64,000 bases of DNA from an uncultured delta proteobacterium (lineage in GTDB: Bacteria > Desulfobacterota > BSN033 > UBA1163). The position numbers and the translations under genes were made by a program. The stretch spans positions 32,001 through 96,000 of the forward strand of contig CAWHBU010000004.1 of assembly GCA_963827685.1 (NCBI GenBank). The letters are read 5' to 3'. The notes under the pieces were generated by a model. It ran no database searches. It was not told the DNA's origin and saw nothing but the letters and a program-made list of their open reading frames with translations. Shown here in pieces: positions 14,278 through 32,613 of the stretch (position 1 is its first letter; each line of letters starts with the position of its first letter).

Positions 14278-14349
14278 TTTAATGAAGCGCATAGCGCATG
14301 GAGCATAGCGCAAAGCGTAAGAACTGTTAAATTCATTTGGAGCAAGACA

Positions 14350-14877
14350 ATGGCTGAAAATGTCGTAACGATATTTCAATGGTTGATCTTTTTAGGAGTG
14401 GCGTTTACCTCCATCATCGCCTCCTTATTGGTCATCAGTCGAAAAAACCCTATCCACAGCGCTCTTTTTCTGGTGCTAACCTTCCTCTGCGTGTCGGTGC
14501 TTTACTTGCTGCTTTACCAACAATTCATGTTCATCATCCAGATTTTCGTTTACGCCGGCGCCATCGTGATGCTGATCGTCTTTGTCATCATGCTTCTGGA
14601 TCTGGAGGTGGAGCTTCGATCCGGTTTGAAACTTTTTTATTCGAAGGTGATCGGTGGCCTGCTGATGGTTCTCTTTCTTTTCGGGATCATTTATTCGGTT
14701 GTGGCGAAATCTCCGACTGGAAAGATGGGTTCCTATACGCCGGATAAGGCGAGTGCCAATGTGAAGGCTGTCGGTGAGATGCTTTTCACTCAATATCTTT
14801 TTCCCTTCGAGATTGTTTCTGTCCTCCTCGCGGCAGCCGTCGTCGGAGCGGTCATCTTGAGCAAGAAAAGGAATTAA
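14350..14877 (+). CDS. nuoJ: NADH-quinone oxidoreductase subunit J
   Basis: NPIHSALFL, VYAGAIVML, FPFEIVSVLL. Confidence 0.95.
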   Translation: MAENVVTIFQWLIFLGVAFTSIIASLLVISRKNPIHSALFLVLTFLCVSVLYLLLYQQFMFIIQIFVYAGAIVMLIVFVIMLLDLEVELRSGLKLFYSKVIGGLLMVLFLFGIIYSVVAKSPTGKMGSYTPDKASANVKAVGEMLFTQYLFPFEIVSVLLAAAVVGAVILSKKRN

Positions 14878-14887
14878 GGAGAGGATT

Positions 14888-15202
14888 ATGGTGATTCCAG
14901 CTGTTCCCCCTGAATTATATCTGGTCTTGAGCGGAATACTCTTCACAATCGGAGTGATCGGAGCCCTGACCCGGCGAAATGCGATTGTGGTCTTCATGTG
15001 TATTGAGATGATGCTCAATGCGGTGAACATTTCTTTCATTACCCTATCCCGCTTTCTCCAATCTCTGGACGGGGTACTCTTTGCCTTCTTTGTCATCGCT
15101 GTAGCAGCGGCTGAGGCAGCGGTTGGGCTGGCAATCTTTGTGATGATTTATCGCTCGAGAGAAACGATCAACGTGGATGAAATTAATATATTAAAATGGT
15201 AA
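14888..15202 (+). CDS. nuoK: NADH-quinone oxidoreductase subunit K
   Basis: RRNAI...IEMMLNAVN, AAAEAAVGLA. Confidence 0.96.
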   Translation: MVIPAVPPELYLVLSGILFTIGVIGALTRRNAIVVFMCIEMMLNAVNISFITLSRFLQSLDGVLFAFFVIAVAAAEAAVGLAIFVMIYRSRETINVDEINILKW

Positions 15203-15205
15203 AGC

Positions 15206-15278
15206 GAGTTAAGAATTATGAATTGAGAATTACGAATTTTTTAAACTCTAAACTCATAACTCCTAATTCTTAATTCTC
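15206..15278. repeat. Imperfect palindrome of heptamer repeats (GAATTAN / TAATTC)
   Basis: gagttaa-gaattat-gaattga-gaattac ... taaactc-ataactc-ctaattc-ttaattc. Confidence 0.65.
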
Positions 15279-15292
15279 CGGAGGAGATATTC

Positions 15293-17284
15293 ATGCTTAA
15301 TTATGTCTGGTTGATCCCCCTGTTTCCGGCGATCGGTTTTATGATCAATGGGTTCTTCGGCAGAAGTTTGGGGAAGAAGGCGGTCAGCTGGGTGGGACCC
15401 TCAGTGATTGGTCTTTCCTTTCTCACCTCTATCCTGATCTTCTTCGAATTGATCGGAAGGCCACCGACGGAGCGTCTCTTTGAAAAAGTGATTTTTGATT
15501 GGGTGGTCTCGGGCTCATTCCAAACGGTGGTCGGCTACCAGATCGATCCTCTCTCCATCCTGATGGCTCTGGTGGTCAGTGGGGTTAGCTTCTTCATCCA
15601 TATCTACTCAGTGGGATACATGCATGATGATCCGGGATATACTCGGTATTTCACCTACCTCAACCTCTTCGTCTTCATGATGCTCAATCTCATCCTGGCG
15701 AACAACTTTTTATTGATGTTTGTGGGATGGGAGGGTGTCGGCCTCTGTTCCTATCTCTTGATCGGTTTCTGGTATGAAAAGGATTCCGCCTCCAATGCAG
15801 GGAAAAAGGCTTTTGTGGTCAACCGAGTGGGTGACTTCGGTTTCATTCTCGGAATATTCCTTCTCTTCACCAGTCTCGGAAAACATGGGGTCTGGACATT
15901 GGATTTTACTGAGGTCTTCGCCAATGCTCATTTGCTGGAACCTGGAACCGTAACAGCCATCACGATTCTGCTCTTTGTGGGTGCCTGTGGAAAATCGGCG
16001 CAAATTCCGATATATGTTTGGCTTCCTGACGCCATGGAAGGTCCTACACCGGTCAGCTCCCTCATCCATGCGGCCACGATGGTGACCGCAGGGGTTTATA
16101 TGGTCGCGCGGTGCAATATACTCTACAGCATGGCACCCATTTCCATGGCCATCGTGGCCATCGTCGGCGTGGCCACTGCCATCTTTACCGCCTCTATTGG
16201 ATTCTGCCAGAACGATATCAAAAAAGTTCTGGCCTACTCTACAATCAGCCAGTTGGGATATATGTTCCTGGGTGTGGGAGTAGGTGCATACAGTGCTGGG
16301 ATCTTCCACCTAATGACCCATGCCTTCTTCAAGGGGCTTCTCTTTCTCGGCGCCGGAAGTGTGATGCATGCTCTGAGTGGCGAATTGGATATGAGAAAGA
16401 TGGGAGCTCTCAGAAAAAAGATTCCCTATACCTTCTGGACCTTCTTCATCGCCACGCTTGCCATCGCCGGGATTCCCGGCTTGAGTGGATTTTTCAGTAA
16501 GGACGAAATTCTCTGGCAAGCCTTCTCCAGCTCCCATGGCCATTTCATCTTATGGGGGGTGGCTGCTATCGCTGCTGGAATGACGGCCTTCTATATGTTC
16601 AGGGCTCTGTTCATGACTTTCTTTGGTCAGTCCAGGGTCGATGAGCATGTAGCACATCATGTCCATGAATCACCCAAAATCATGACCGTTCCTTTAATGG
16701 TTCTTGCTGTTCTCTCCATCATTGGAGGTTATATAGGTGTTCCTCACGTTTTGGGAGGAGCCAACCACATCCATGAGTTCCTCGCTCCTGTATTGGGAGG
16801 TGGGGCTGAGCCGGCCAAAGCCCATGCCGGGATCACACTCATCTCACAGGCTTGGGCATCTGGAGGAGAGGGGGCAGGACATTTGGCTACATGGGAGTTC
16901 CCGATGATGGTAATCTCTGTGGTTATCGCCCTCATAGGGATCGGGATCGCTTATCTCTTCTATGTGAAGAATCCAGCTCTTCCCAAACTCGTGGCGGAAA
17001 AATGGAAGGGACTCTACAAGCTGGTCTTCAATAAATATTATGTCGACGAACTCTACGAAATCCTTTTCATCAACTCTCTTAAAAACTTGGGCACGGCGCT
17101 CTGGAAAGGATTTGATGACTTTGTCATCGATGCTACGATCAATGGCATTGCTTATTTCATCGGTCTGATCTCGGGAACGATAAGAAAGATGCAGACCGGT
17201 TTGGTTCAAAACTATGCCTTTTCAATGGTCATCGGGGGAATCGTCCTCGTAGCCTATTACATCGCGCGCGCTATTTTTTATTAA
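15293..17284 (+). CDS. nuoL: NADH-quinone oxidoreductase subunit L
   Basis: GWEGVGLCSYLLIGFW, GKSAQIP...WLPDAMEGPTPVS, HAFFKGLLFL. Confidence 0.97.
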   Translation: MLNYVWLIPLFPAIGFMINGFFGRSLGKKAVSWVGPSVIGLSFLTSILIFFELIGRPPTERLFEKVIFDWVVSGSFQTVVGYQIDPLSILMALVVSGVSFFIHIYSVGYMHDDPGYTRYFTYLNLFVFMMLNLILANNFLLMFVGWEGVGLCSYLLIGFWYEKDSASNAGKKAFVVNRVGDFGFILGIFLLFTSLGKHGVWTLDFTEVFANAHLLEPGTVTAITILLFVGACGKSAQIPIYVWLPDAMEGPTPVSSLIHAATMVTAGVYMVARCNILYSMAPISMAIVAIVGVATAIFTASIGFCQNDIKKVLAYSTISQLGYMFLGVGVGAYSAGIFHLMTHAFFKGLLFLGAGSVMHALSGELDMRKMGALRKKIPYTFWTFFIATLAIAGIPGLSGFFSKDEILWQAFSSSHGHFILWGVAAIAAGMTAFYMFRALFMTFFGQSRVDEHVAHHVHESPKIMTVPLMVLAVLSIIGGYIGVPHVLGGANHIHEFLAPVLGGGAEPAKAHAGITLISQAWASGGEGAGHLATWEFPMMVISVVIALIGIGIAYLFYVKNPALPKLVAEKWKGLYKLVFNKYYVDELYEILFINSLKNLGTALWKGFDDFVIDATINGIAYFIGLISGTIRKMQTGLVQNYAFSMVIGGIVLVAYYIARAIFY

Positions 17285-17383
17285 AATCCCCCTCAATCCC
17301 CCTTTTGCCTGTCTTTGACAGGAAAAAGATTACAAAGGGGGAGGTTACTCCTCCCTTTCGTAAAGGGAGGCAGGGAGGGATTT
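17285..17383. repeat. REP-like GC-rich multi-hairpin element
   Basis: aatccccctcaatcccccttt...aaagggggag...cctccctttcgtaaagggaggcagggagggattt. Confidence 0.55.
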
Positions 17384-17403
17384 AAAAAAAAGGAGTCGAT
17401 TTC

Positions 17404-18954
17404 ATGACTATCCTGGGTATTCCCATCCTATCGCTGTTGATCTTCTTTCCGATCTTGGGTGCCATCGTTCTCCTCTTCATCAACAAAGAGAATGGGAGAG
17501 CTCTGAGGTGGGTCACTTTAATCTTCTCTTTCATCGAATTTATTTTCTCACTGCCCCTTTTCTTCGCCTTCGATCCCAAGACAGCAGCGATGCAATTCGT
17601 GGAGAATTCGTGGTGGATTCAGAGCTATGGGATCAGCTACAAATTGGGCATCGATGGAATCAGTCTCCTTCTGGTCCTCTTGACTACCTTTTTGACCATC
17701 CTCTGTATCCTATGCTCATGGACAGCGATCACCTTCCGGGTAAAGGAATTCATGATCTCGTTCCTCTTTCTTGAGACAGGGATGATCGGTGCCTTGGCGG
17801 CCCTCGATCTCATCCTTTTCTATGTCTTCTGGGAAGTCATGCTGATCCCGATGTATCTGCTCATTGGTGTTTGGGGTGATCCCAAGAGAAGGATTTATGC
17901 AGCAGTCAAGTTCTTCCTTTTTACCATGGCCGGAAGTGTGCTCATGCTCGTGGCGATCCTGGCCCTCTATTTCCTGAATCAGAAGACAACCGGTGTCTCC
18001 ACCTTTGACGTGATCGAACTCTATAAATTGGGATTGCCCGTCGGGGCGCAGTACTGGCTTTTTGGAGCTTTTGCCCTGGCCTTTGCCATCAAGGTTCCGA
18101 TGTTCCCCTTTCATACCTGGTTGCCCGATGCTCATACCGAGGCGCCGACTGCTGGAAGTGTGATCCTGGCAGGCGTCCTGCTGAAGATGGGAACCTATGG
18201 GTTCATCCGATTTGCCATACCCCTGTTTCCGAAGGCCGCCTTCGATCTTTTACCGTTAGTTTCGATCTTGGCCCTTATTGGAATTATTTACGGTGCGTTG
18301 GTTTCAATGATGCAGCCCGATCTGAAGCGACTGGTCGCTTTCTCGAGCGTGAGCCACCTGGGATATGTCATGCTCGGAATGTTTGCTTTCAACATGCAAG
18401 GGGTCGAGGGCTCGATCTATCAGATGCTCAACCATGGCATCAGCACGGGGTCCCTCTTTTTGATTGTCGGGATGATCTATGAGCGCCGCCATACGCGTTT
18501 GATCGCTGACTTTGGAGGACTCTCGAAGGTGATGCCGATCTATGCTGTCTTCTTCATGATCGTGACCCTCTCATCGATCGGCCTGCCCGGGACGAATGGG
18601 TTTGTGGGAGAATTTCTGATCCTGCTCGGTGCTTTTCGATCCAACGTCGTCTACGGGGTGTTTGCTGCGACGGGCGTCATCTTGGGAGCCGCTTACATGC
18701 TGTGGATGTTTCAGAGAGTGATGTTTGGAAAGATCACCCGGCCTGAAAATGAAAAGCTGAAAGACCTCAATGCTCGAGAAATTACCATCCTCGTTCCGAT
18801 GGTGATTCTAATCTTTCTTATGGGCATCTATCCCAAGCTTTTCTTCAGCAAGATGGACGCCAGCGTGGAGCAGTTTATAAAGGATTTCAAGGGAAGGGTT
18901 GAAATGAAGGCCGACCTTCCCTCGCAAAAAGTGGCCGAAGTCGTGAAGAAATAG
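17404..18954 (+). CDS. nuoM: NADH-quinone oxidoreductase subunit M
   Basis: [46 protein letters not shown]. Confidence 0.97.
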
Positions 18955-19049
18955 ATGGGAAGACACGGAGAAACAAGAGATAATTAGAGTTTCACCGTGT
19001 CACCGAGTCACGTATTCCCCGTGTCAAGGTATAGCGGAGGATTCTTTAG

Positions 19050-20501
19050 ATGAAAATACCAGAGATTGACCTCTATCTCATTGCACCGGAGATTATCATC
19101 ACTGCCTTTGGGTTTTTGGTGCTTCTGTTGGACGTCTTTTTACCCAAAGGAGAGAGAAAGGGGTACCTTGGAGTCATCAGCCTCATCGGGATATTTTTTG
19201 CCGGTCTTTATACTTTGCCGCAGATGGGATCTGTTAGATCCGGGTTTGAAGGGATGTTCATCTCGGATGGGTATGCTCTTTTTTTCAAAATCACTTTTCT
19301 GATCATCGCCTTTTTGACCGTCCTGATCTCTATTGGTTACATTCATAGGGAAATGATCGAGTTTGGGGAATATTATGCCCTGATCCTTTTTGCGACCCTC
19401 GGGATGATGCTGATGGCAGCGGGGTCTCATTTGATCATCATCTTCCTCGGTCTGGAAACGATGTCCATTTCCATCTATATCCTGGCCGGAATGATGCGAG
19501 AGGATAAAAGGTCAGTGGAAGCCGCATTGAAATATTTTCTTCTGGGTGCTTTTGCCACAGGATTCCTCCTCTATGGCATTGCCCTCATCTATGGTGCCAC
19601 AGGATCCCTTTATCTGAAGGACATCGCTTCTTATATTACCTCCAAAAATCTCTTGAGAAGCCCGATGCTTCTGATGAGCCTTGTTTTTCTCACCATTGGT
19701 TTCGGCTTCAAGATTGCTTCTGTCCCTTTTCATATGTGGACGCCCGATGTCTATGAAGGCGCTCCGACTTCCATTACTGCTTTCATGGCCACAGGTGTGA
19801 AGGCTGCCGGTTTTTCGGCCTTGATCAGAGTCTTCTTCTCCGCCTTGCCGGCATTTCGCCCTGATTGGACATCGATCATGTGGCTGATTTGCGTGGCCAC
19901 GATGACGGTCGGAAACATCGTAGCGATCTCCCAGGCCAATATTAAACGGATGTTAGCTTACTCGAGTATTGCGCATGCCGGGTACATTTTGGTTGCCTTT
20001 GTCGCGGGGAACGATTTAGGGACTTCAGGCATGCTTTTCTATCTCATGGCCTATGCCTTTATGAACATCGGTGCCTTTACCGTGGTCATCCTTCTCGGGA
20101 AGAAGGGAGAAGAGAACACCCTGATTAAGGATTATGCAGGGATTGGATTCAAATACCCGCTCCTGGCCGCTTCCATGACCATCTTTCTCCTCTCCATGGC
20201 AGGCATTCCTCCTCTGGGAGGATTCATGGCCAAATTCTATATTTTTAGTGCAGCGGTGAAGTCGAAATTTTATTGGTTGGCCATCCTCGGTGTCCTGAAC
20301 AGTGCGGTTTCGGTTTACTATTATCTGCGGGTCACTGTGCTCATGTATTTCAGGGAATCCGAGCGAGAGATCACCGGCCTCGAATTTTCACCTGCTTCTG
20401 TGATCGCATTGATTTTGGCCGTGATCGGAACCCTCTACATGGGGATCTTCCCCGCCAATGTGCTTTCCTTAGCTCAACGCTCCATCGCAGGGTTAATGTA
20501 G
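19050..20501 (+). CDS. nuoN: NADH-quinone oxidoreductase subunit N
   Basis: EAALKYFLLG, GFKIASVPFHMWTPDVYEGAPT, KRMLAYSSIAHAGY. Confidence 0.97.
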   Translation: MKIPEIDLYLIAPEIIITAFGFLVLLLDVFLPKGERKGYLGVISLIGIFFAGLYTLPQMGSVRSGFEGMFISDGYALFFKITFLIIAFLTVLISIGYIHREMIEFGEYYALILFATLGMMLMAAGSHLIIIFLGLETMSISIYILAGMMREDKRSVEAALKYFLLGAFATGFLLYGIALIYGATGSLYLKDIASYITSKNLLRSPMLLMSLVFLTIGFGFKIASVPFHMWTPDVYEGAPTSITAFMATGVKAAGFSALIRVFFSALPAFRPDWTSIMWLICVATMTVGNIVAISQANIKRMLAYSSIAHAGYILVAFVAGNDLGTSGMLFYLMAYAFMNIGAFTVVILLGKKGEENTLIKDYAGIGFKYPLLAASMTIFLLSMAGIPPLGGFMAKFYIFSAAVKSKFYWLAILGVLNSAVSVYYYLRVTVLMYFRESEREITGLEFSPASVIALILAVIGTLYMGIFPANVLSLAQRSIAGLM

Positions 20502-20633
20502 GAAATGGAAGAGTTTAAAGACACCCATTTTAATTCCTCAATTGACTCCATAAAATACATTCAACAAACTATAAGCAGAACCTAAAGCTATCTTTTCAAA
20601 ACCTAATCAACATTCTTGGCAGGAGAGAATATT

Positions 20634-20777
20634 ATGGTGCAAAAAGAACGCCGATCTAGAATAGATAGAAGGAGAGGTGTGGATCGCAGGAAATTTAACG
20701 ATCCGAATTACAAAGGTCCTGAACGCAGAGGCGGAAAAGACAGGAGATCTAGAAAAGAAAGAAGGAAATCTGCTTAA
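20634..20777 (+). CDS. Small Arg-rich protein with (D/E)RR repeats and a YKGPERR motif (47 aa, not in the ORF track)
   Basis: MVQKERRSRIDRRRGVDRRKFNDPNYKGPERRGGKDRRSRKERRKSA*, preceded by an AGGAGAG RBS. Confidence 0.65.
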   Translation: MVQKERRSRIDRRRGVDRRKFNDPNYKGPERRGGKDRRSRKERRKSA

Positions 20778-20886
20778 TAGACCAATAAGTTCAGCTCTTG
20801 ATCCTTTTGCTAAGAATCAATTTCAGGATTGGTACCATTCGCTGTCTTCCCTATCTTTCCCATCAGTTGGATGTAGCATTGGCGTT

Positions 20887-20906
20887 CCTGCCTACCGGCA
20901 GGCAGG
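20887..20906. repeat. Short palindromic element CCTGCCTACCGGCAGGCAGG
   Basis: Near-identical copy at 12739-12757. Confidence 0.6.
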
Positions 20907-21801
20907 TATTGCCGACGTATTCTTCTATTTAATTCCGGCAATCCGAAAAACCTACCATTTTTATTCCTGTTTGACTTCTTTGCCCAAATTCAATAAACTC
21001 TAAACGAGATTATAGCTTCGCTTCGTTTGTGGCCAAAAAGATCCCGAAGGCTTGGGGACGCTAAGGTGAGAGGTGAAAAATGGAGGAGAAAGCAAGGTTT
21101 AGCAAGGAGGATATAGGTGGTGAAATACTCCCTATACTGACAACAGGACTCTACAAGGATATTTTGGATACTATCCGTGAGTACATTCAAAATGCGATTG
21201 ATGCCCAAAGTCGCCGGATAGAAATCATCATAGATCCCGACACAATAACAATTACTGACAATGGCTTAGGCATGGATTTCCAGGAGGCAAGAAAAGCAAT
21301 AAAATTAGGTGTTTCTGAGAAGAATCCTTTGGAAAACGTAGGATTCCGGGGAATTGGAATTTACAGTGCTTTTAATTTATGCAATGGCCTTGAAATCTAT
21401 ACCAAACCAGCATCTGAAGATCACTGCAGCGTTATTCGTTTTGATTTTAAGAAAATGCGCGAGGCACTGCTTAAGGACCAGGAACAAAGAAAGAGAGGAA
21501 AGCCCTCTTCTCTGTACCTTGAAAAATTACTTAATGATACGGTCATTGTAGAAATTGATAAAGAAAAAACACTAAAAGAGCACGGCACTAGAGCAATAAT
21601 GTTTGATCTATTAGAAGATGTTTATCGGCGAATAAACAATTGGGATGAGATAGTGGGTTACCTTCAAGATGTTGTCCCTTTGCCGTTTCAGGCAAATTTT
21701 AAGTACGCCACTGTTATTAAGAAGAAATTCGAGCAAGAAGATTATAGAGTAGTTCCTCTTGAACTTCAAATTGGTAACCGACGAGAGGAAATATATCGAC
21801 C

Positions 21802-23129
21802 CAGTACTGTCCGGTTAAGGATTTTTAAAAACTGACAATGTTAAACAATGTTAATAGGATAAACATAACAATGACCGTTTTCGATTTCAGATCGTCTGCT
21901 TTTATTGGCCATAATACTTCCATCTCAGAGTGGAAAGGAATGGTCAATGCACTGTGGACGAATGATCTTTTCACAACTCATAAACTTTCTGCCCAAACAC
22001 GAATTCAACAAGTGTGTGCGAAGATACCAAGGCAATTACCGAGTCCGAAGATTTTCCTGTTTCGATCAATTTCTCTGCATGGCCTTCGCCCAGCTTACTT
22101 ACCGAGAAAGTCTTCGCGAGACCGAAACGTGCTTGCGCGCCTTGCAGTCCAAACTCTACCATGTAGGGATTCGGAGCAAAGTCGCTCGAAGCACCCTGGC
22201 CGAAGCCAACGAAAACAGAGACTGGCGGATCTACGCCGATTTTGCTCAAGTGCTGATCCGAAGAGCAAGGTACCTGTATGCCAAAGAAGATTTCGGCGTG
22301 CTCTTGGATCAAGCCGCCTATGCCTTCGATTCGACGACGATCGATCTCTGTCTCTCGCTTTTTCCTTGGGCCCATTTTCGCAAACGCAAAGGCGCCATCA
22401 AACTCCATACGCTGATGGACCTCCATGGCAGTATCCCCTGCTTTATCCGCGTTACCGAAGGCAATGTTCACGACGTCAATCTCCTCGACCAATTGATCTT
22501 AGAGCCTGGCTCTTTTTACATTATGGATCGCGGCTATATCGATTTTGCCCGCCTGTATGTGTTCGCCCTCCATTCAGCCTTCTTTATCATTCGCGCCAAG
22601 AGAAATCTCGATTGCACTCGTCGAAGCTACCGCCTCGTCGACAAAACCACGGGACTCCGAAGCGATCAAACGATTCTTCTCAATGGCCCAAAGACCTCCC
22701 AGGAATATCCCGATCCCCTTCGCCGGATCAGCTATTTCGATATCGTAACGTCCAAACGATTCGTATTCCTGACAAACAATTTTATGCTCAACCCTCTGAC
22801 CATTACCCAACTGTACAAATGCCGCTGGCAGGTGGAACTCTTCTTCAAGTGGATCAAACAGCACCTTCGAATCAAATCCTTTTATGGAACCTCCGAGAAT
22901 GCAGTGAAAACCCAAATCTGGATTGCAATAAGTATTTATGTTCTCTCCGCTATTATCAAGAAAGAATTGAAACTCGACCGAAGTCTCAACGAAATCCTGC
23001 AAATCTTGAGCATCACTTTATTCGAGAAAAACCCCATTTATCAGGTGCTTTCAGGTTTTTTTGATGATATTAAAAAACCCGATTTCTGTAACCAATTGTC
23101 TTTATTCAATTCTTAACCGGACAGCACTG
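21802..23129 (+). mobile_element. IS4-family insertion sequence (1328 bp)
   Basis: Terminal IRs CAGTACTGTCCGGTTAAG / CTTAACCGGACAGCACTG (18 bp, 1 mismatch); 9-bp direct repeat ATATCGACC at 21793-21801 and 23130-23138. Confidence 0.95.
21947..23116 (+). CDS. IS4-family DDE transposase (DUF4372 + DDE_Tnp_1 type)
   Basis: DSTTIDL, MDRGY, YKCRWQVELFFKWIKQHL (YREK signature); likely start is the ATG at 21947. Confidence 0.93.
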   Translation: MHCGRMIFSQLINFLPKHEFNKCVRRYQGNYRVRRFSCFDQFLCMAFAQLTYRESLRETETCLRALQSKLYHVGIRSKVARSTLAEANENRDWRIYADFAQVLIRRARYLYAKEDFGVLLDQAAYAFDSTTIDLCLSLFPWAHFRKRKGAIKLHTLMDLHGSIPCFIRVTEGNVHDVNLLDQLILEPGSFYIMDRGYIDFARLYVFALHSAFFIIRAKRNLDCTRRSYRLVDKTTGLRSDQTILLNGPKTSQEYPDPLRRISYFDIVTSKRFVFLTNNFMLNPLTITQLYKCRWQVELFFKWIKQHLRIKSFYGTSENAVKTQIWIAISIYVLSAIIKKELKLDRSLNEILQILSITLFEKNPIYQVLSGFFDDIKKPDFCNQLSLFNS

Positions 23130-24157
23130 ATATCGACCATATAATAATGATATGTTTTCACATGGAGGTGAACACCCTCCCAAATTCTTTGAGATATCGT
23201 CAGGGAAAGAAAAGTTTGGTTTTGCTTGGGTGTGCATAAGCGATGCCCGTCAGGTCTTAAAAAACCCTAAACTTCGGGGCTTTCTAATAAAAAAGTCTGG
23301 TTTTTCAATTTCTGACCGAAACTACTTTGAACCCTACTTCGGCCGTACTGTTATTAACCGACGTATTACTGGGGAAGTCATTGTTAAACACACGAATCTA
23401 ATTCCTAACGCAGCAAGAAGTGACTTCGAACATAATTCATCACGCCAAGCCTTTCTAGAAGCTTTACCTAAATTTATTCTAGAAGTTACATCGTGGGCCA
23501 ATAAAATACAAGATGAGGACAAAGCCAAAGAAGTTCTCGCGCAAGTTTCAGAGGAAATCGTGCAAATCAATAAAACACTCAGAATAAGTTCACGTGACAG
23601 AGTGAATGTTCCTTCGATTATGTCGAAAGGAATACTCTCACACAAACATGCAAAAAAGATAAACCACAATTCCGTTGCCATGGAGGAAATACAAGACCGG
23701 AGGGAAAAGAAAGTTGTTCCGGGTGGGCGCCCATTACATGAATATGTGAATTTGTATTTCCATGCAAGAAATCCAATGCTTTACGTTCGGCGATCTCACC
23801 ATATTGATCTTTGTATCTTGTGTGTAGGTACACAAATTCTTGACTTGCCAGGGGTTGTCATTGCTGATCGGAACGCTTCCAGTGATTATGCGCGGTTCGC
23901 TCCTGCACCGCACGGGCTTTCAATTGTTGACAAGGAGACCACGTTTGCTGAATACTGGACTCATCAGGACCCGTTTGAGGCGATGCGTCGTAAATCGGCA
24001 AAATGTGCCGAAGTTTTGGTTCCGGATCGCATAGACCCTTGTCTTATTATGGGAGCCTATGTTTCTTGTCTAGAGGCAAAGACGAAGTTTGAAGCATTGG
24101 CGGTTGATATTCCAGTGACAGTAAATTCATATCTTTTCTTCAAATAGGGAGGGAGAA

Positions 24158-25282
24158 ATGGTCAAAGTATTGATGGGTGACATTCTGAAATCTAAGGCCC
24201 AGACCCTTGTCAATACTGTAAATTGTGTTGGAATTATGGGCAAGGGGATTGCGCTTGAATTTAAGGAGCAGTTCCCCGACATGTTCAATGATTATGTGGA
24301 GCGGTGCAATCGTAATGAGGTTAGACTCGGCAAACCTTACTTGTTCAAGAGACTAACACCACCCTGGATTTTGAACTTCCCGACAAAGGGCCACTGGCGT
24401 TCAGTGTCACGGATCGAAGACATTATAAAGGGTCTAAAATATTTGCTTCAACACTATAAAGAATGGGGAATTACGTCTCTTGCTGTACCCCCACTTGGGT
24501 GTGGTCAAGGTCAACTGGAGTGGAAGATAGTTGGTCCAACGCTATACCGTTATTTGAACCAATTAGATATACCCGTCGAACTCTATGCACCTCACGGCAC
24601 GTCACATGAAGAACTGCAGCCTGAATTTCTTGATCAAGAGATAGATATTAAACCTGTTGAGCCAGGATTGGCTCCGGAAAGGGTTAAACCCGCGTGGCTT
24701 GCGGTAGTTGAGATTCTAAGCCGGTTGGAACAAGAACCCTATCACTGGCCTGTAGGTCGAACTACATTCCAAAAAATTGCGTACATTGCTACCCAAGAAG
24801 GCTTGCCCACCGGACTACACTATCAAAAATCAAGTTTCGGCCCTTTCTCACCAGAGTTAAAGGGTGTTATCACCCGACTAGTCAACAATGGCTTAATACG
24901 AGAGGAGCAGCTTGGACGAATGTTTGCGGTTAAAGTTGGGCGAACCTTCTCAGACGCACGGAAAGCCTACATGAATGAACTGGCTCAATGGGAACCAATT
25001 ATTGAGAAAACAACAGATCTATTCATGCGTATGCAAACGAGGCAATCCGAGGTCGTGGCGACAGTCCTTTTCGCTGCAAACACATTGGTAAATAGAAATA
25101 AAGAGCAACCTTCCGAAAAAGAAGTCTTGAATGAGGTGATGGAATGGAAGCAACGTCGCCGTCCAAAACTTGATGACAAGGAAGTTGCCTACACCATTCG
25201 AAATCTGGCTGCTTTGAGTTGGCTAAAAGTCAAACCAAGTTCAGACTTACCGATACCGGATGAAATTATTGCTGAAGCATAA
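24158..25282 (+). CDS. darG: DarG macrodomain antitoxin (DNA ADP-ribosylglycohydrolase)
   Basis: NTVNCVGIMGKGIALEFK, NFPTKGHW, PPLGCGQGQL; C-terminal FQKIAY...FGPFS domain; lies 10 nt after the darT-domain stop. Confidence 0.9.
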   Translation: MVKVLMGDILKSKAQTLVNTVNCVGIMGKGIALEFKEQFPDMFNDYVERCNRNEVRLGKPYLFKRLTPPWILNFPTKGHWRSVSRIEDIIKGLKYLLQHYKEWGITSLAVPPLGCGQGQLEWKIVGPTLYRYLNQLDIPVELYAPHGTSHEELQPEFLDQEIDIKPVEPGLAPERVKPAWLAVVEILSRLEQEPYHWPVGRTTFQKIAYIATQEGLPTGLHYQKSSFGPFSPELKGVITRLVNNGLIREEQLGRMFAVKVGRTFSDARKAYMNELAQWEPIIEKTTDLFMRMQTRQSEVVATVLFAANTLVNRNKEQPSEKEVLNEVMEWKQRRRPKLDDKEVAYTIRNLAALSWLKVKPSSDLPIPDEIIAEA

Positions 25283-25507
25283 TTTAATAATGATTATGAA
25301 GTTCTCTCAAAGGGTTGCAGAGTCCAATTAGGGACAAGACCTGGATTATGTATCTTAAGGAAAGTTAAGGTTGGAGGAAGAGAATTGAATCAATGCCATA
25401 TATTTGGACTCACCGAACAATCATTGATTATTAAAGAGGGAAACATATCAACGAGTAGCCCTTTACAAATTTAGCGAACCGAATCATGCCCTGTCCCTGA
25501 AAAATCA

Positions 25508-28003
25508 ATGAAAGACCTTGAAAACCTTCGAACCCAGCTCCAAAAAGCATTAGCCGAATGTGCTTCCTTAAGGGAGGAAAATAAACAATTAAAGAAACTA
25601 CTTGGTCTGTCTTCTGAAGAAATTGTTCCACTTCACGAACTTGCCATTTCAGAACCATTGAGCCTATACACTGTCACAAGCACTCCGGTGATCAATAACT
25701 TTTCGATAGAAGAGCAAGTTACTCTTTTCCGCTCTCTATTTCGTGGGCGGGAAGACGTGTATCCAGTCAGATGGGAAGGGAAATATGGAAGATCCGGATA
25801 TTCTCCTGCGTGTGCAAACGAATGGAAACGTCCCTTATGCGGTAAACCTAAGACGAAATGTGGGGATTGCGGAAACCGAAATCTCGTGCCAGTGACGGAT
25901 GAGGTAATCCGGGGCCATCTAATCGGAAAACATATCATTGGAGTCTACCCACTCTTATTGGATGAAACTTGTTGGTTTCTTGCTATAGATTTCGATAAGA
26001 AGACCTGGCAGGAGGATGTGGTCGTTTTTCTTCGGGTCTGCCGAGAAATAGGGGTTCCTGCGGCGCTTGAGCGTTCCCGGTCAGGACAGGGTGGTCACGT
26101 TTGGATATTCTTTGATCGTCCAATTGAGGCTTCAATAGCCCGGAAGTTCGGTTGTACCATCCTGACGCGTGCTATGGAGCGGAGACATCAAATTGGTTTG
26201 GATTCCTATGACCGATTCTTTCCTAGCCAAGATACTCTGCCAAAAGGCGGGTTTGGTAATCTCATTGCCCTTCCATTGCAATTTACTTCAAAAAAGAAGG
26301 GTAATAGCGTTTTCGTGAACGAAGGCTTTGAAGCTTTTCCCGACCAGTGGCTGTTCCTTTCCACAATCAAAAGAATTCGGAGGGACGAGGTAGAAGCTAT
26401 TGTTCAGGAGGCATCGAGAAATGGAAGCATCATTGACGTCCGCATAAGTCTTACTGATGGAGAAGCCTCTGAAGACCCTTGGACTTTACCTCCGTCAAAG
26501 AAAAGAATTGAAAAAACCATTCAAGGACGTTTGCCCCAAACTGTTCAGTTGGTCCAAAGTAACCTGGTCTATATAGAAAAAAAGGGGTTACCCCCTGCTA
26601 TGCTAAACCGACTAATTCGTTTAGCTGCTTTCCAAAACCCCGATTTCTACAGGGCTCAGGCGATGCGGCTGTCGACATTCGGCAAACCGCGAGTTATTGG
26701 TTGCGCTGAGGATTTTGCCGACCATATCGGTCTTCCCAGAGGCTGTATCGATGATGCACTAGCAGTGTTTAAAGCCCACAATATCAACACAAAAATCGAC
26801 AATAAGCGTTTAGAGGGTACCACGATAGACGCAACTTTTCGTGGCGAACTCCATCCTTTCCAACAAGAGGCGGGCGACAAAATGCTAGCTTATGACAACG
26901 GCATTTTGTTAGCTCCCACCGCTTTTGGCAAGACGGTGTTAGCGGCATGGCTCATTGCTCAAAGAAAAGTGAATACCCTCGTATTAGTGCATCGCAGACA
27001 ACTCATGGATCAGTGGAGAGAACGGTTAGCACTGTTTCTTGATAAACCTATAGAAGATCTTGGTCAGATAGGTGGGGGCAAGACGAAGGTGACTGGTCAT
27101 ATTGACGTTGGTTTAATACAGAGCCTCATTCGCAAGGGCGAGGTCAAGGACATGGTGGCTGAATACGGTCAAGTCATCATTGATGAGTGCCACCATATTC
27201 CTGCCTTTACCTTTGAACAAGTTCTCAAACAGGCGAAGGCTAGGTATGTTGTCGGCCTTACGGCAACCCCTATTCGTAAGGATGGTCATCACCCAATAAT
27301 CATGATGCAGTGCGGTCCAATTCGTTTCAAGGAGAACGCTAAAAGACACGCAACGATAACGCCATTTGAACATGTCGTCTTGACAAGGTTCACTGATTTC
27401 AAATTGCCTCCGGAATTAACCGATCCTAAAATACAAGATATTTATTCAGCCCTTGTATTTGACAAACATCGCAACGAATTAATCTTCAACGATCTACTGA
27501 AAGCTTTAGAAACAGGACGGTCGCCCCTACTCCTAACAGAGCGTACTGAGCATTTAGAATGGTTCGCAGAACATCTTAAGGGTTTTGCTCAGAATATCAT
27601 AATTCTTAGGGGCGGCATGGGCACAAAACAACGTAAAGCACTGGCTGAACAGATTAAAGCAATTCCCGATTCAAAGGAGAGGGTAATCATTGCCACAGGG
27701 CGGTATATCGGTGAGGGTTTTGATGATGCTAGACTGGACACATTATTTTTGGCTATGCCAATCTCTTGGCGTGGCACACTCCAGCAATATGTAGGCCGTC
27801 TTCACCGACTTCACGATAATAAGCAAGTGGTGCAAGTTTATGATTATGTTGACATTCATATTCCGACATTGATGAGAATGTATAAGAAACGGCTGAAGGG
27901 TTATGACGCAATCGGGTATTTGGTTCAAAATTCTCAGGAAAACCAGGGAGAAAAGAGCGATGAATTACTGCCCGAAACCAAAGACACTGTCTTGGATATC
28001 TAA
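25508..28003 (+). CDS. TOTE-type AEP primase domain fused to an SF2 (DExH) helicase
   Basis: FRGREDVY, Cys cluster CANEW...C...CGDC, AIDFD, ERSRSGQGGHVW and GNLIALPLQ (AEP); Walker A APTAFGKT, DECH, TAT and QYVGRLHR. Confidence 0.85.
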   Translation: MKDLENLRTQLQKALAECASLREENKQLKKLLGLSSEEIVPLHELAISEPLSLYTVTSTPVINNFSIEEQVTLFRSLFRGREDVYPVRWEGKYGRSGYSPACANEWKRPLCGKPKTKCGDCGNRNLVPVTDEVIRGHLIGKHIIGVYPLLLDETCWFLAIDFDKKTWQEDVVVFLRVCREIGVPAALERSRSGQGGHVWIFFDRPIEASIARKFGCTILTRAMERRHQIGLDSYDRFFPSQDTLPKGGFGNLIALPLQFTSKKKGNSVFVNEGFEAFPDQWLFLSTIKRIRRDEVEAIVQEASRNGSIIDVRISLTDGEASEDPWTLPPSKKRIEKTIQGRLPQTVQLVQSNLVYIEKKGLPPAMLNRLIRLAAFQNPDFYRAQAMRLSTFGKPRVIGCAEDFADHIGLPRGCIDDALAVFKAHNINTKIDNKRLEGTTIDATFRGELHPFQQEAGDKMLAYDNGILLAPTAFGKTVLAAWLIAQRKVNTLVLVHRRQLMDQWRERLALFLDKPIEDLGQIGGGKTKVTGHIDVGLIQSLIRKGEVKDMVAEYGQVIIDECHHIPAFTFEQVLKQAKARYVVGLTATPIRKDGHHPIIMMQCGPIRFKENAKRHATITPFEHVVLTRFTDFKLPPELTDPKIQDIYSALVFDKHRNELIFNDLLKALETGRSPLLLTERTEHLEWFAEHLKGFAQNIIILRGGMGTKQRKALAEQIKAIPDSKERVIIATGRYIGEGFDDARLDTLFLAMPISWRGTLQQYVGRLHRLHDNKQVVQVYDYVDIHIPTLMRMYKKRLKGYDAIGYLVQNSQENQGEKSDELLPETKDTVLDI

Positions 28004-28146
28004 GAAAAATGGGCATCAATACTGTTGAGACTGACACTCAATCAGCAAAAATTTTAGACTCCGCATGGAAAATCCAGAACAATGTTTCGTAAGTCACCAA
28101 ATCCGCAGACGCTATTTGCTAAGTCTGGACCGATCCACGAAAAAAA

Positions 28147-28183
28147 TAAAGGGCACACTCTGAAATGAAGTGTGCCCTTTTAT
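28147..28183. terminator. Bidirectional intrinsic terminator between convergent genes
   Basis: AAAGGGCACACT...AGTGTGCCCTTT flanked by A- and T-runs. Confidence 0.75.
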
Positions 28184-28216
28184 AAAAAACGGGAATGACT
28201 TCCCGGTTATTTTGTT

Positions 28217-28606
28217 TTAATAGCCCTTTTCAGAAGGAGCTTTTTCCTTCATCCCTGTGGTTTTTGGTGCACTCACACTGACCGTATCAGCCACCGATTT
28301 GTTCCCTTCTTTGGCGTATTCGACAGTGACTTCCTGTCCTTTCTTCAAATCGGCGAGGGCGAGCGTCTTCGTGCCTTCAGTGATCTTTGCCTTGTCACTC
28401 AACGGGAAGGTTATTTCTTCTTTTCCGCTCTTCACGGAAAAATCCTTCCTGGCCACATCCACCCTTTCGATAACACCAATGTACTTCTCGAGTTTGGGTG
28501 CGGCTGGTGTTGCTGAGACAGGAGCTTTTTGTTCTGCTGCCATGACAGCGGCGACAAAGATCACTGAAGCGGCTAAGACCATAACCGTCAACATTGTTCT
28601 TCTCAT
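28217..28606 (-). CDS. Small exported protein, probable OB-fold-like (DUF5666/CusF-like) domain
   Basis: Signal peptide, G-x-I-x-x-VD...LADLKKGQEVTVEY pattern; GGAGG RBS before the ATG at 28606. Confidence 0.6.
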   Translation of the reverse strand: MRRTMLTVMVLAASVIFVAAVMAAEQKAPVSATPAAPKLEKYIGVIERVDVARKDFSVKSGKEEITFPLSDKAKITEGTKTLALADLKKGQEVTVEYAKEGNKSVADTVSVSAPKTTGMKEKAPSEKGY

Positions 28607-28837
28607 GTTGTTCACCTCCTGTCTGTTGAGATTTTGTTTCCTAATTTAATTTTGAGCGAGGAGAATGAATTCTGTCAAGAATGGGAATTGGGCTGGTGTA
28701 GAAAAAATAAAGGTGCTATCTTTCGGGATAAGAAGGTTCTCTTTTTTTGGTCAACGGAACCGGTTATAATATCGTTTGCAAAATTTAGACCGTCCGATAT
28801 AACGCAGCAAAAAATCAAATTCCAGGGATGTGGTGTG

Positions 28838-30298
28838 ATGGCAGAGAAGGACATGAACGGGGAGCCCAGTTTTGAGGAACTTTTGAAGGCCAGTTCTGAG
28901 GGCCCGGGTCGCAGGCTTTTCCCCGGAGATAAGGTTTCAGGGAAGGTGTTGAAAGTCTCCAAGGATACGATCTTTGTTGATTTAGGAGGCAAGAGCGAGG
29001 GGATTGCGGATATTCAGGAATTCCTGGACAAGGAGGGCCACCTCACCCTCAAGGAGGGAGATTGGGTTGAGATGAGGGTGTCATCGACCCGGGATGGAAT
29101 CCATCTCACAAAGGGAATGAAGGTTCAGGGTGCGGATTCTCTCGACATCCTCCGGGAGGCAAAAGAAAACCTCATCCCTGTTGAAGGAAGAGTGACTAAT
29201 GTCGTGAAGGGAGGTTTTGAGATCAAACTTTCTGGAATTCGTGCCTTTTGCCCTTTAGGCCAGATGGACATCCAGTTCTGTGAGAAGCCTGAGGAGCATG
29301 TTGGAGCGAGATATCCGTTTCGCATCATGGAGATCAAAGAAAAAGGGAAGAATATTATCGTCTCCAGACGCGTGCTCCTGGATGAAGAGCAGGAGAAAAA
29401 GTCAAAAGAGACTTTAGCGAGACTCAGGCCTGACCTTGAGTGTGAGGGGAAGGTGACCAAACTGACCGACTTTGGTGCCTTTGTCGATATCGGAGGAATC
29501 GAAGGGATGGTCCATATCTCTGAAATATCCCATGGAAGGATAAGCCATCCATCGGAGATTCTAAAACCTGGCCAGCAGGTGAAGGTAAAAGTGATGAAGT
29601 TCGAACCGGATAGGGAAGGCCGTCCCAAAGTCTCTCTTTCCATCAAAGCCTTGGAGCTTGACTCATGGGGGAAAGGCCTTGGATTTGAAGAGGGAGAGAT
29701 CATCCGCGGCAAAGTCTCCAGGCTCACGGACTTTGGGGCTTTTGTCGAAGTGGCACCGGGGGTGGATGGTCTTGTTCACATTTCTGAGATCAGTTACGAA
29801 CGTGTTTCCCATCCGAGCAGATTCCTCCATGAAGGGGATAGGGTGGATGTGCTGGTCATGGGAATAGACCGTGAAACGCGCCGCATCTCCCTGTCAATTA
29901 AAGAGGTGACGATCAAGAAAAGGATGGAGATGGAAGGAGAGGGATCGGATAAGGTGCGCCTTGAAGTAGGACAAGTCCTGAGAGGGATTGTTGAAGACAG
30001 TAAGCCTTACGGTATTTTTATCCGCCTTCCACAGCTTGGACCAAAGGTGAAAGGCCTGCTTCCCATGGAGGAACTGAAAGATTCTGGGGAAAAAGATATT
30101 AAAAAGAAATTTGCCAAAGGTCAGGAGATTCAAGTGGAGATCATCGTTATAGATGAAAAAGGAAAAATAAGACTATCACAAAGAGTGATAGAGGAGAGAG
30201 AGGACCGGGAAGATTACAAAGAGTTTTTGGGAAAGGAAGATAAGGGTGGGAAGTTGGGAACTTTAGGAGACATTTTCAAGAACTTGAAGCCGAAGTGA
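28838..30298 (+). CDS. 30S ribosomal protein S1-like protein (multiple S1 domains)
   Basis: SFEELL N-terminus; repeated FGAFV.I.G.(E/D)G.VHISEIS S1 motifs; C-terminal LGTLGDIF. Confidence 0.88.
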   Translation: MAEKDMNGEPSFEELLKASSEGPGRRLFPGDKVSGKVLKVSKDTIFVDLGGKSEGIADIQEFLDKEGHLTLKEGDWVEMRVSSTRDGIHLTKGMKVQGADSLDILREAKENLIPVEGRVTNVVKGGFEIKLSGIRAFCPLGQMDIQFCEKPEEHVGARYPFRIMEIKEKGKNIIVSRRVLLDEEQEKKSKETLARLRPDLECEGKVTKLTDFGAFVDIGGIEGMVHISEISHGRISHPSEILKPGQQVKVKVMKFEPDREGRPKVSLSIKALELDSWGKGLGFEEGEIIRGKVSRLTDFGAFVEVAPGVDGLVHISEISYERVSHPSRFLHEGDRVDVLVMGIDRETRRISLSIKEVTIKKRMEMEGEGSDKVRLEVGQVLRGIVEDSKPYGIFIRLPQLGPKVKGLLPMEELKDSGEKDIKKKFAKGQEIQVEIIVIDEKGKIRLSQRVIEEREDREDYKEFLGKEDKGGKLGTLGDIFKNLKPK

Positions 30299-30435
30299 GT
30301 TACAAAAGCGCATAGGGCATAGCGCATAGCGCATAGGGCCGCAAAATAAAACCAAGGACTATATTTTCATGGTTTGTGGGGTCGAGGATGTCATGAAAGA
30401 TTCCTTTGAAAATAGAATAGCCGGGATTTCTTTCT

Positions 30436-30912
30436 ATGAAAAAAACAAATGCGGTAAGGTTTCTGGATAGTTTAAAGGTTGATTACAAACTTCTGGAATA
30501 TGAGATTGATGGGTCAGACCTCAGTGCTGAAAGTGTTGCAAAGAAGGTGGGTTTGCCTCCAGAGCAAGTATTTAAGACACTGGTTGCCAGGGGAGATAAA
30601 ACAGGAATATTGATGGGTTGCATTCCAGGAAACAATGAACTCGATCTGAAGGCAATGGCTATGGTCAGCGGAAACAAAAAGGTAGAGATGGTCCATGTGA
30701 AAGAGATTCAACAATTAACAGGTTATATCCGGGGAGGCGTCTCACCGATTGGGACAAAAAAACAATATCCCATTTTTTTGGATGAGAGTGCCATGAGGTT
30801 TCCACTTATCTCGATCAGCGCTGGGGCGCGGGGTTCCCAAATTTTTATTTCGCCGGAGGATTTAATCGAGGCGCTGGATATAGAGCTATGCAAGATCGCC
30901 CGAAGTGAATAA
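30436..30912 (+). CDS. ybaK: Cys-tRNA(Pro) deacylase
   Basis: KTNAVRFL, QVFKTLV, TGYIRGGVSPIG, SAGARG. Confidence 0.93.
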   Translation: MKKTNAVRFLDSLKVDYKLLEYEIDGSDLSAESVAKKVGLPPEQVFKTLVARGDKTGILMGCIPGNNELDLKAMAMVSGNKKVEMVHVKEIQQLTGYIRGGVSPIGTKKQYPIFLDESAMRFPLISISAGARGSQIFISPEDLIEALDIELCKIARSE

Positions 30913-30913
30913 A

Positions 30914-31102
30914 GGTTGACCCATTCGGCGGCGCCAAGCCCCGCCTTTGAAGGCTAGTAAAGAAGCACCGCTCTCTTCGGCAAGCTCAGAACACTGAGTC
31001 TGTCGAAGTGCAGGGTCAACCGTGAGCCCTCGGCCTGAAATGAATCGAACGCTCGGGCCGAAGGTAGGCCTGGCCTTCAGGCCGGGGAGTCGAAGGGTTG
31101 AC
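30914..31102. repeat. Composite palindromic / MITE-like element
   Basis: Contains CTTCGGCAAGCTCAG-aaca-CTGAGTCTGTCGAAG and IS200/605-end-like hairpins (gccccgcctttgaaggc; cctggccttcaggccgggg); GGTTGAC at both ends. Confidence 0.5.
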
Positions 31103-31182
31103 TTTAAGGGGATGTCCTGGGTTATGATACAGTTTACTGAGGATCCATAGAAGGAACAAATAATAAGAAAGGAGCTTATTAA

Positions 31183-31908
31183 ATGAGATTAAAACTGATC
31201 GTCGTCTTAGGGATTCTGTTTTTAGTGAGCCAGGTGAGTGCGGAGGAAAAATTGGTCCTGAAAAACCAGAAGGAAAAAGTCAGCTATATCATCGGCATGG
31301 ATATCGGAGGTAAACTAAAAACACAGTCGGTCGATATTGACCCGAATATTCTCGTAAAAGGAATCCAGGATGCCCTTATCGGTGCGAAGCCTTTATTGAC
31401 CAATCAGGAAATTCAGGAAACCATGCTTGCTTTTCAGAAAGAGATGATGGCGAAGCGGGAGGAGATGGCCAAGAAAAACAAGGCAGAGGGAGAGGCTTTT
31501 CTCGCTGAGAATAAGAAGAAGGAAGGCGTTAAAACCTTGCCGAGCGGTTTGCAGTATAAGGTGATCAAGGCAGGAACCGGTAAGAAACCGAAAGCAGATG
31601 ATACGGTAACAGCGGATTATCGGGGTACCCTGATTAGTGGGACGGAGTTTGACAGCTCTTATAAGCGTGGACAACCTGCAACCTTTTCAGTTTCCGGTGG
31701 CATGATTCCGGGTTGGACCGAGGCTTTGCAGCTGATGGAGGTGGGTGCGAAATGGCAGCTCTTTATTCCTTCGAATCTCGCCTATGGTGAACGTGGAGCG
31801 GGCGGCATAATCGGACCCAATGCGACTCTAATTTTCGAAGTTGAACTGGTCTCAATTAAAGAGAAAGCACAAGAGAATAAACCTGAAAATAAACAAGAGA
31901 AAAAATAA
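31183..31908 (+). CDS. FKBP-type peptidyl-prolyl isomerase (FkpA/Mip family)
   Basis: Signal peptide, SYIIG, SGLQYKV, FDSSYKRG, IPGWTEAL, IGPNATLIFEVEL. Confidence 0.95.
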   Translation: MRLKLIVVLGILFLVSQVSAEEKLVLKNQKEKVSYIIGMDIGGKLKTQSVDIDPNILVKGIQDALIGAKPLLTNQEIQETMLAFQKEMMAKREEMAKKNKAEGEAFLAENKKKEGVKTLPSGLQYKVIKAGTGKKPKADDTVTADYRGTLISGTEFDSSYKRGQPATFSVSGGMIPGWTEALQLMEVGAKWQLFIPSNLAYGERGAGGIIGPNATLIFEVELVSIKEKAQENKPENKQEKK

Positions 31909-31969
31909 GATCATCCAGGCATTTAGAAAAGGTCCTTGAAAAAGGGCGGTAACGGGGTGTGCAAAAGAA

Positions 31970-32476: not shown

Positions 32477-32613
32477 ATTTGCTTAAATTCTATCAGACAA
32501 GTCCATCATTATAACCTGATAACCTGTCAAACTCGCCTACGACTACGCTGCGAATCATTAACCCCTTAATTTTCTTGAAAAAAATCGGGACTCGTGTTAG
32601 TTTTGTTTTGACT

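Follow-up and report, generated by a model that had tools for sequence, protein, structure and literature searches.

A GHKL ATPase–DarT reading frame beside an intact darG is very probably a one-off deletion chimera

Introduction

Does a GHKL ATPase joined in frame to the toxin DarT represent a sensor that gates a DNA ADP-ribosyltransferase, or the accidental remains of two genes? The question is raised by a stretch of 64,000 nucleotides from an uncultured delta proteobacterium (GenBank assembly GCA_963827685.1, contig CAWHBU010000004.1, positions 32,001 to 96,000), which we call the window and whose numbering is used throughout. Here a GHKL ATPase gene, split by an insertion sequence (IS) of the IS4 family, runs into the coding sequence of DarT, and the antitoxin gene darG follows. 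An earlier note on this DNA had offered two readings of the fusion, a new sensor-gated DarT architecture or the joining of two neighbouring genes by a deletion, by which the toxin may have been disabled, and had favoured the second.

The evidence presented below makes it very probable that the locus is decayed: a one-off deletion chimera of a GHKL ATPase and an unrelated, 5'-truncated darT, split by the IS and lying beside an intact darG. The basis is the anatomy of the locus, the truncation of both halves relative to their relatives, the absence of fused relatives among the matches and the presence of the junction in sequencing reads. The source genome is a bin of 14 contigs, 94.5% complete, with an estimated contamination of 7.98%.

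Results

The interrupted frame consists of a GHKL ATPase and a DarT domain

When the IS and one copy of its target-site duplication were excised by script, 1,731 nt remained, encoding 576 amino acids with no internal stop, just as the earlier note had read from the letters. The frame begins with the GHKL ATPase N-terminus, continues through a middle domain and ends in the DarT domain, a composition that the note had also proposed and that is borne out by the Pfam profiles and by alignment with the database protein P0011 (538 aa). The ATP-binding (Bergerat) fold is present in the ATPase part, which matches HATPase_c_3 above the Pfam cut-off. In the interrupted gene, the first open reading frame (ORF1) reads into the IS as far as 21835, with 10 IS-encoded residues appended. 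The second (ORF2) starts at 23152 on an internal methionine, Met246 of the ATPase frame, and its residues 1–150 are the GHKL middle part, including the segment LIPNAARSDFEH named in the note. At the boundary between ATPase codons 241 and 242, the last codon of the 5' part is completed at 23139. The ORF2 stop at 24147 and the darG start at 24158 leave a gap of 10 nt, as the note had stated.

Of the first 395 residues of the IS-free frame, 392 are the same in P0011, whose residues 246–395 are identical to residues 1–150 of ORF2 (150/150). P0011 spans the IS site and reads RPYNNDMFSHGG there, and the excision frame is therefore confirmed independently.

Both halves are truncated at the junction

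The identity with P0011 stops at residue 395 (AGA, 23599–23601). Beyond this point P0011 and the window's frame share nothing, and P0011 has 143 further residues. In the ATPase family these C-terminal ~143 residues are conserved: an alignment of six sequences (P0011 and five relatives) has many invariant columns, as far as position 516. Searched with P0011, the window's own genome matched residues 1–242 and 236–399 only, and the rest of the C-terminal part was not found there. The window's ATPase is accordingly not a full-length member of the 538-aa GHKL ATPase family.

The DarT half is recognized both by PADLOC DarT (1.2e-36 on ORF2) and by Pfam DarT (PF14487; 122.5 bits against a gathering score of 22.5), and it is 86% identical to residues 17–196 of the stand-alone DarT P0002. 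Stand-alone DarTs, mostly of 196 aa, align to the window from their residue 16 or 17 onward, and a search of the window's own genome with a stand-alone DarT matched residues 17–196 only. At the DNA level, homology to darT of the same genus (83–84%) begins at 23604/23605, which corresponds to nucleotide 48 of darT. These homology limits therefore place the junction between ATPase codon 395 and approximately darT codon 16; it can be placed no closer than a few bases. The valine codon GTG at 23602–23604 may be the ancestral residue 16, whose position varies among relatives, or a product of the join.

At 23601/23602 the junction reads RISSRDR/VNVPSI, without the N-terminal strand of DarT, an observation of the note with which the DarT alignments and the profile match agree. 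The Pfam match in the window begins at profile position 7, so that the ADP-ribosyltransferase fold lacks the part that includes LHYIT (profile positions 1–6); the intact DarT of a genome of the same genus (G014) matches from profile position 1–3. The lost segment comprises the first 15–16 residues, which bear the near-invariant LHYIT in P0002. With it the remnant lacks the first β strand, and it has no start codon, ribosome-binding site or promoter of its own from which a protein of ~196 aa could be translated. Of 24 aligned DarT relatives, 23 have the first-strand motif H-[YF]-I; the alignment, a mixture of ATPases and DarTs in which the ATPases were misaligned, was used solely for reading DarT N-termini. 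H10 and I12 of DarT are at least 90% conserved among 38 sequences, and the lost strand aligns with ELYYIT in the structure 7omu and with IYHIT in Thermus DarT (7omv). In the crystal structure of DarT1 (PMC11543638), NAD+ is contacted by the first-strand residues H17, F18 and T19, which bind its adenosine ribose and stack on its nicotinamide.

The pocket residues are otherwise kept. The motifs AEVLV, IQDRR and YVNLYF, listed in the note, are all present together with LHEY and NPMLY, in columns that are invariant or nearly so, and by alignment with the solved structures they map to R51, H65, Y71, M78 and E160 of Thermus DarT. The pocket roles of these Arg, His, Tyr, Met and Glu residues are taken from PMC9967889 and PMC11543638. 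An AlphaFold2 model of ORF2 residues 137–331, built with 37 DarT relatives, shows a confident DarT fold with a mean predicted local distance difference test score (pLDDT) of 85.3, in which the 11 ATPase-derived residues have a pLDDT below 50. AlphaFold is not a stability test, and this low pLDDT is consistent with a defect and no proof of one. Given that the first core β strand LHYIT is missing, the DarT remnant can most likely no longer fold or bind NAD+ as it should, and the toxin activity would then be lost.

The junction is present in short-read contigs

A chimeric contig join, or a collapsed region in the metagenome bin, could have brought the two halves together in the assembly; the estimated contamination and the existence elsewhere of a near-identical undeleted ATPase allele (P0011) would fit such an artefact. 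Logan contigs of public short-read runs were aligned to 20900–25400, and two of them bridge the junction, each extending 46 letters or more to either side of it: record 4 of X1 (23294–23647, one mismatch) and record 22 of X2 (23514–23828, no mismatch). In addition, record 1 of X1 (21158–21830) extends 29 nt into the IS. X1 and X2 are two samples of one study and may include the source sample, so that they serve as a check on the assembler and say little on other populations. X3 gave no piece across the junction among the pieces listed. Neither a joint across the IS nor a loose end or alternative joint at 23601, either of which would point to IS-free or undeleted alleles, is found among those listed, where depth is low, and absence is not claimable from them. 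Since short-read contigs of two samples cross it, the junction is not an assembly artefact; this option, which the note had kept in view, is contradicted by the bridging contigs and we consider it barely credible.

Relatives of the two halves are separate genes

The note had proposed a search for fused as opposed to separate homologues. When ORF2 was used to query 5.8 billion proteins through a word index, 120 matches were listed, namely the window's own ORF, 113 DarTs and six HATPase_c_3 ATPases. The listed DarTs are 182–261 aa long (most 196 aa), are up to 86% identical and cover the last ~54% of ORF2; the listed ATPases, of 514–538 aa, cover the first 45–60%. No protein among these 120 matches (182–580 aa) covers both halves, and coverage above 60% of the query is reached by the window's own ORF alone. 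When the search was confined to longer proteins, no fused form above 580 aa appeared, which is weak evidence. A HMMER scan, exhaustive over 1.84 billion cluster representatives, likewise gave no fused form among the 150 matches listed: eight match only query residues 1–~150 and 142 only the DarT part, nearly all of the latter placing query residue 151/152 at DarT position 16/17 or later. No paper on a GHKL–DarT fusion was found in the literature, judged by titles.

The two families also stand apart in their gene neighbourhoods. Reference genomes supplied 60 and metagenomes 80 of the 140 loci from which relatives of the ATPase were gathered; by tblastn, DarT and DarG lie near the GHKL relative in one of the 140. 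This single linked locus (L040:798-4989) belongs to a Nitrososphaerota archaeal bin; its ATPase is 28% identical, and its gene order differs, with DarTG upstream of the ATPase and another gene between. Judged from these loci, the ATPase and DarTG families are not normally linked. None of the GHKL relatives in the collections from reference genomes and metagenomes exceeds 65–68% identity, and among 40 related genomes there is no ATPase orthologue, 19 of the 40 giving only 30–36% matches to the ATP-binding core.

The usual company of the ATPase was read from the 49 loci whose match has at least 40% identity and extends to residue 520 or further; the 91 partial or distant loci were dropped. A partner gene of ~336 aa lies ~6 nt downstream of the ATPase in 39 of the 49, and most of the other 10 stop at a contig edge. 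A gene of ~483 aa, resembling B12-binding radical-SAM proteins, is nearby in 30 of the 49. The ~336-aa partner has no match in our copies of Pfam or PADLOC, although some of its database members carry the precomputed family PF28273; its model (pLDDT 93.9) matches the fold of class I SAM methyltransferases with a Foldseek probability of 1.0 and a TM score of only 0.3–0.38. No PADLOC match was obtained for the partner genes. With the partner from L001 as query, the ~336-aa gene was not found in the window's genome, which is 94.5% complete, and for the ~483-aa gene a single weak match (E 0.0065) lies elsewhere in it. A search with the partner protein gave no match on a contig of 4,000 nt, the length of the one that encodes P0011. 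The partner P0153 has a longest contig of 9,237 nt, as has the ATPase P0039, which is 88% identical to P0011, a hint of adjacency and no proof.

The gene set recurs across many phyla (loci L001–L119, for example L001:6001-9804, L009:5971-10121 and L103:2934-7088), and some loci (L007, L008, L082 and L095) have an extra, second ATPase paralogue. The set of GHKL ATPase, methyltransferase-fold protein and radical-SAM protein may constitute a modification or defence system that has yet to be described.

A single deletion would explain the junction

We propose that the ancestor carried a stand-alone gene for a 538-aa GHKL ATPase, which in relatives heads an operon with the methyltransferase-fold gene and often the B12/radical-SAM gene, and also an ordinary module of DarT with a macrodomain-type DarG. 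A single deletion would have taken the last 143 ATPase codons and whatever lay between the genes, probably the ATPase partner genes, and with them the promoter, ribosome-binding site, start codon and first 15 codons of darT. The ends would have joined in frame by chance. Independently, an active IS4-family element would have inserted into the ATPase part; the two events are read as independent because the IS, which lies 472 nt upstream of the deletion junction, is flanked by an intact duplication of its own. What is left of the ATPase has neither the conserved C-terminus nor a partner and is split by the IS. Since the usual partner genes of the ATPase are also missing, ATPase and darT may not have been direct neighbours before the deletion. 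The reading that the note had favoured, a deletion, is supported by the absence of fused forms among the matches listed, by the shortening of both halves and by two families that are not normally linked; the disablement of the toxin is likely on the grounds given above.

Several observations weigh against this reading. The join is in frame, for which the chance probability is one in three, and neither half has a further stop or frameshift. Outside the first strand, the DarT remnant retains every catalytic pocket residue named above, and AlphaFold2 draws a low-confidence strand at model residues 7–13. The undeleted arrangement has not been seen directly in the window's strain, and the best listed DarT match is only 86% identical. 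Nor does the darT remnant bear signs of relaxed selection: in a three-genome count its lineage-specific codon changes are 25 synonymous and eight non-synonymous, as compared to 13 and 11 for the intact darT of G007 and 15 and seven for that of G014. The lack of relaxed selection fits a recent deletion and equally fits function. The in-frame join and the lack of a non-synonymous excess are the best arguments left for function.

The same observations bear on the sensor-gated architecture, in which the GHKL ATPase, before the IS arrived, would have acted as an ATP-driven sensor or gate for the attached DarT, with LRISS replacing the first DarT strand. An in-frame join within a stop-free frame of 576 aa, retained catalytic Glu, Arg, His, Tyr and Met positions, a modelled strand at the replaced position and a darT remnant free of excess non-synonymous change are what such a protein would show, and DarTs with other N-terminal domains do exist, such as the HNH-DarT P0260. 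However, no second example appeared among the matches listed, the exhaustive scan included, and each half is shortened relative to every relative. The first strand is kept in all eight natural N-terminally extended DarTs that were checked, which match Pfam DarT from profile position 1–3 and retain ELHY-I/L; the residues that replace it in the window fall below a pLDDT of 50. The ATPase family usually has other partners, 139 of the 140 loci being without DarTG, and the IS now interrupts the gene. With no fused relatives among the matches listed and with families that are not normally linked, the sensor-gated reading is not supported: the relatives found are all separate, with a longer ATPase (514–538 aa) and an intact DarT N-terminus, the outcome that the note had named as refuting such an architecture. 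We regard a new architecture as very unlikely. That the chimera GHKL(1–395)–DarT(16–196) arose by accident and was nevertheless expressed and active before the IS insertion, held in check by the adjacent DarG, is extremely unlikely; were it true, it would represent the one-step birth of an ATPase-coupled DNA ADP-ribosyltransferase with ATPase residues as its first DarT strand.

Within the deletion reading, both the deletion and the IS insertion look recent, because the ATPase differs from P0011 at three of 395 positions and darT shows no non-synonymous excess.

darG appears to be an intact orphan

In contrast to the toxin, DarG is complete. It scores 294.1 bits against NCBIfam antitoxin_DarG (cut-off 250) over residues 3–350, is 89–91% identical to DarG of the same genus over its full length with 374 of 374 residues aligned, and has a macrodomain that matches the solved DarG macrodomains 5m31 and 5m3i. 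Its gene has its own ribosome-binding site, GGAGGGAG, upstream. DarG thus looks intact, now an orphan antitoxin and the sole part of the locus that looks functional.

A promoter-like site straddles the right end of the IS and the flanking gene (Table 1), and, as a possible hybrid promoter, it could drive ORF2 and darG. Since the promoter scan returned 17 sites, as compared to 9.2 +/- 3.4 in shuffles, a single such site is weak evidence.

An intact DarG leaves room for a variant in which the loss was selected: inactivation of DarT would have relieved a cost, and DarG would have been kept as a free-standing DNA de-ADP-ribosylase, giving immunity to a foreign DarT or help in repair, under a promoter created by the IS. 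The full-length antitoxin, well above its cut-off and close to its same-genus counterparts, together with the ribosome-binding site of darG and the promoter-like match over IS end and flank, would suit this scenario, and orphan DarG-like antitoxins are reported to be used by phages (PMC11825919). The evidence fits a recent neutral accident equally well, however; the promoter is a consensus match alone, and the identity of 392/395 with P0011 makes the events look recent. We consider selected loss rather unlikely.

DarT is present in three of the 40 related genomes, and in two genomes of the same genus, G014 and G007, it is of full length (residues 1–196) and accompanied by DarG. The pair of G014 lies downstream of nuoN, as in the window. 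There (L151, G014:C80) the genes ahead of the pair encode an Eco57I-like methylase, a DUF2851 protein and a PLD-SNF2 helicase, whereas in the window the stretch 20502–28216 is occupied by the remnants of the ATPase and of DarTG, the IS and a TOTE helicase. The different cargo at the same site downstream of nuoN therefore marks a variable defence island. The G+C content of the island is 0.36–0.47, as compared to ~0.49–0.53 in the nuo genes; no tRNA, sought as an island border, was found within 14000–34000.

The IS4-family element and other features of the locus

The positions of the features are collected in Table 1. The inverted ends of the IS, 22 nt long, are 91% complementary, and its transposase scores 259.8 bits against NCBIfam transpos_IS4_1 (cut-off 115). 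The genome contains seven full-length copies at ~100% identity, among them those in G000, the source genome, at C4:650772, C2:633620, C1:214636, C1:89498, C3:1124488 and C6:321870. A 9-bp duplication was computed for six of the seven; the match of the seventh is one base short, which shifts the computed flank. Seven nearly identical copies with 9-bp duplications indicate that the element is probably still active. Of the sampled words of 20900–25400, ~0.2–0.3 are shared by many further public runs, approximately equal to the share of the IS in that stretch.

Table 1. Positions of features in the window
Feature	Position	Strand	Description
GHKL ATPase 5' part, codons 1–241	21080–21801	+	HATPase_c_3 51 bits; 238/241 identical to P0011
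ORF1	21080–21835	+	251 aa; HATPase_c_3 51.1 bits (Pfam cut-off 25)
Target-site duplication ATATCGACC, left copy	21793–21801	.	9 bp; read and script-checked
IS4-family insertion sequence	21802–23129	+	1,328 bp; 22-nt terminal inverted repeats
Transposase ORF	21905–23116	+	403 aa; DUF4372 + DDE_Tnp_1 (Pfam)
Promoter-like site	23118–23145	+	10/12 consensus matches; first hexamer in IS right end, TATAAT in flanking gene
Target-site duplication ATATCGACC, right copy	23130–23138	.	9 bp; read and script-checked
GHKL ATPase codons 242–395, middle domain and start of C-terminal helical part	23139–23601	+	P0011 identity
ORF2	23152–24147	+	331 aa; Pfam DarT 122.5 bits on residues 151–326
Deletion junction AGA/GTG	23599–23604	+	GHKL codon 395 joined to ~darT codon 16
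darT remnant, codons ~16–196 and stop	23602–24147	+	Pfam DarT profile positions 7–197 of 201
darG	24158–25282	+	374 aa; Macro domain; PADLOC DarG 1.3e-94
Primase-helicase ORF	25508–28003	+	831 aa; AEP-TOTE primase domain + SF2 helicase

The primase-helicase ORF, an AEP-TOTE primase-polymerase (333 bits) with an SF2 helicase, adjoins darG on its downstream side and is missing from both same-genus DarTG loci; a literature search found nothing on the TOTE system. On the other side, between nuoN and the ATPase gene, an ORF of 53 aa (20616–20777, + strand) is extremely rich in Arg and Lys, with repeated DRR/ERR.

Discussion

The locus is very probably gene wreckage and not a new kind of toxin. The case calls for caution, as an annotator or a survey of domain architectures could miscount a deletion join as a new DarT fusion in a defence island. 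It also offers a clear case, open to dating, in which a toxin gene was lost and its antitoxin remained intact, and a near-identical, undamaged allele of the ATPase survives in public data. The gene set of GHKL ATPase, methyltransferase-fold protein and radical-SAM protein may outweigh the fusion itself in interest.

Each part can be set beside a known counterpart. The insertion sequence shows nothing unusual for the IS4 family, sharing the DDE transposase with a DUF4372 N-terminus, the 22-nt ends, the 9-bp duplication and the presence in multiple copies. The ATPase has the ATP-binding fold of the stand-alone GHKL (HATPase_c_3) ATPases of 514–538 aa, such as P0011, which it matches at 392 of residues 1–395, and differs from them in the missing C-terminal 143 residues, the split by the IS and the partner genes not found in the genome. 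This 538-aa family resembles named systems only below threshold: the BbrUII/HgiDII restriction enzyme at 44.6 bits (cut-off 550) and MzaB at 19 bits (cut-off 850), with weak likeness also to PADLOC TmtA and REase_II.

Natural extended DarTs, for example the HNH-DarT P0260 (353 aa) and P0382 (485 aa), likewise have a C-terminal DarT within a longer protein. They keep the complete domain, whereas the upstream residues in the window come from an unrelated, helix-rich region. P0382 has a low-complexity N-terminal extension of 295 residues with a putative membrane segment. The closest solved structures, Thermus DarT (7omv) and a DarT–DarG fusion (7omu), belong to the DarTG2 type of the DarTG toxin–antitoxin and anti-phage system, with a macrodomain DarG, and the window shares with this type the order of DarT followed by DarG. 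Its toxin differs in the 15 lost codons that include LHYIT, in having no start signals of its own and in being joined to foreign coding sequence. His119 of Thermus DarT, which contacts the base according to PMC11543638, aligns with a Tyr in the subfamily to which the window's DarT belongs.

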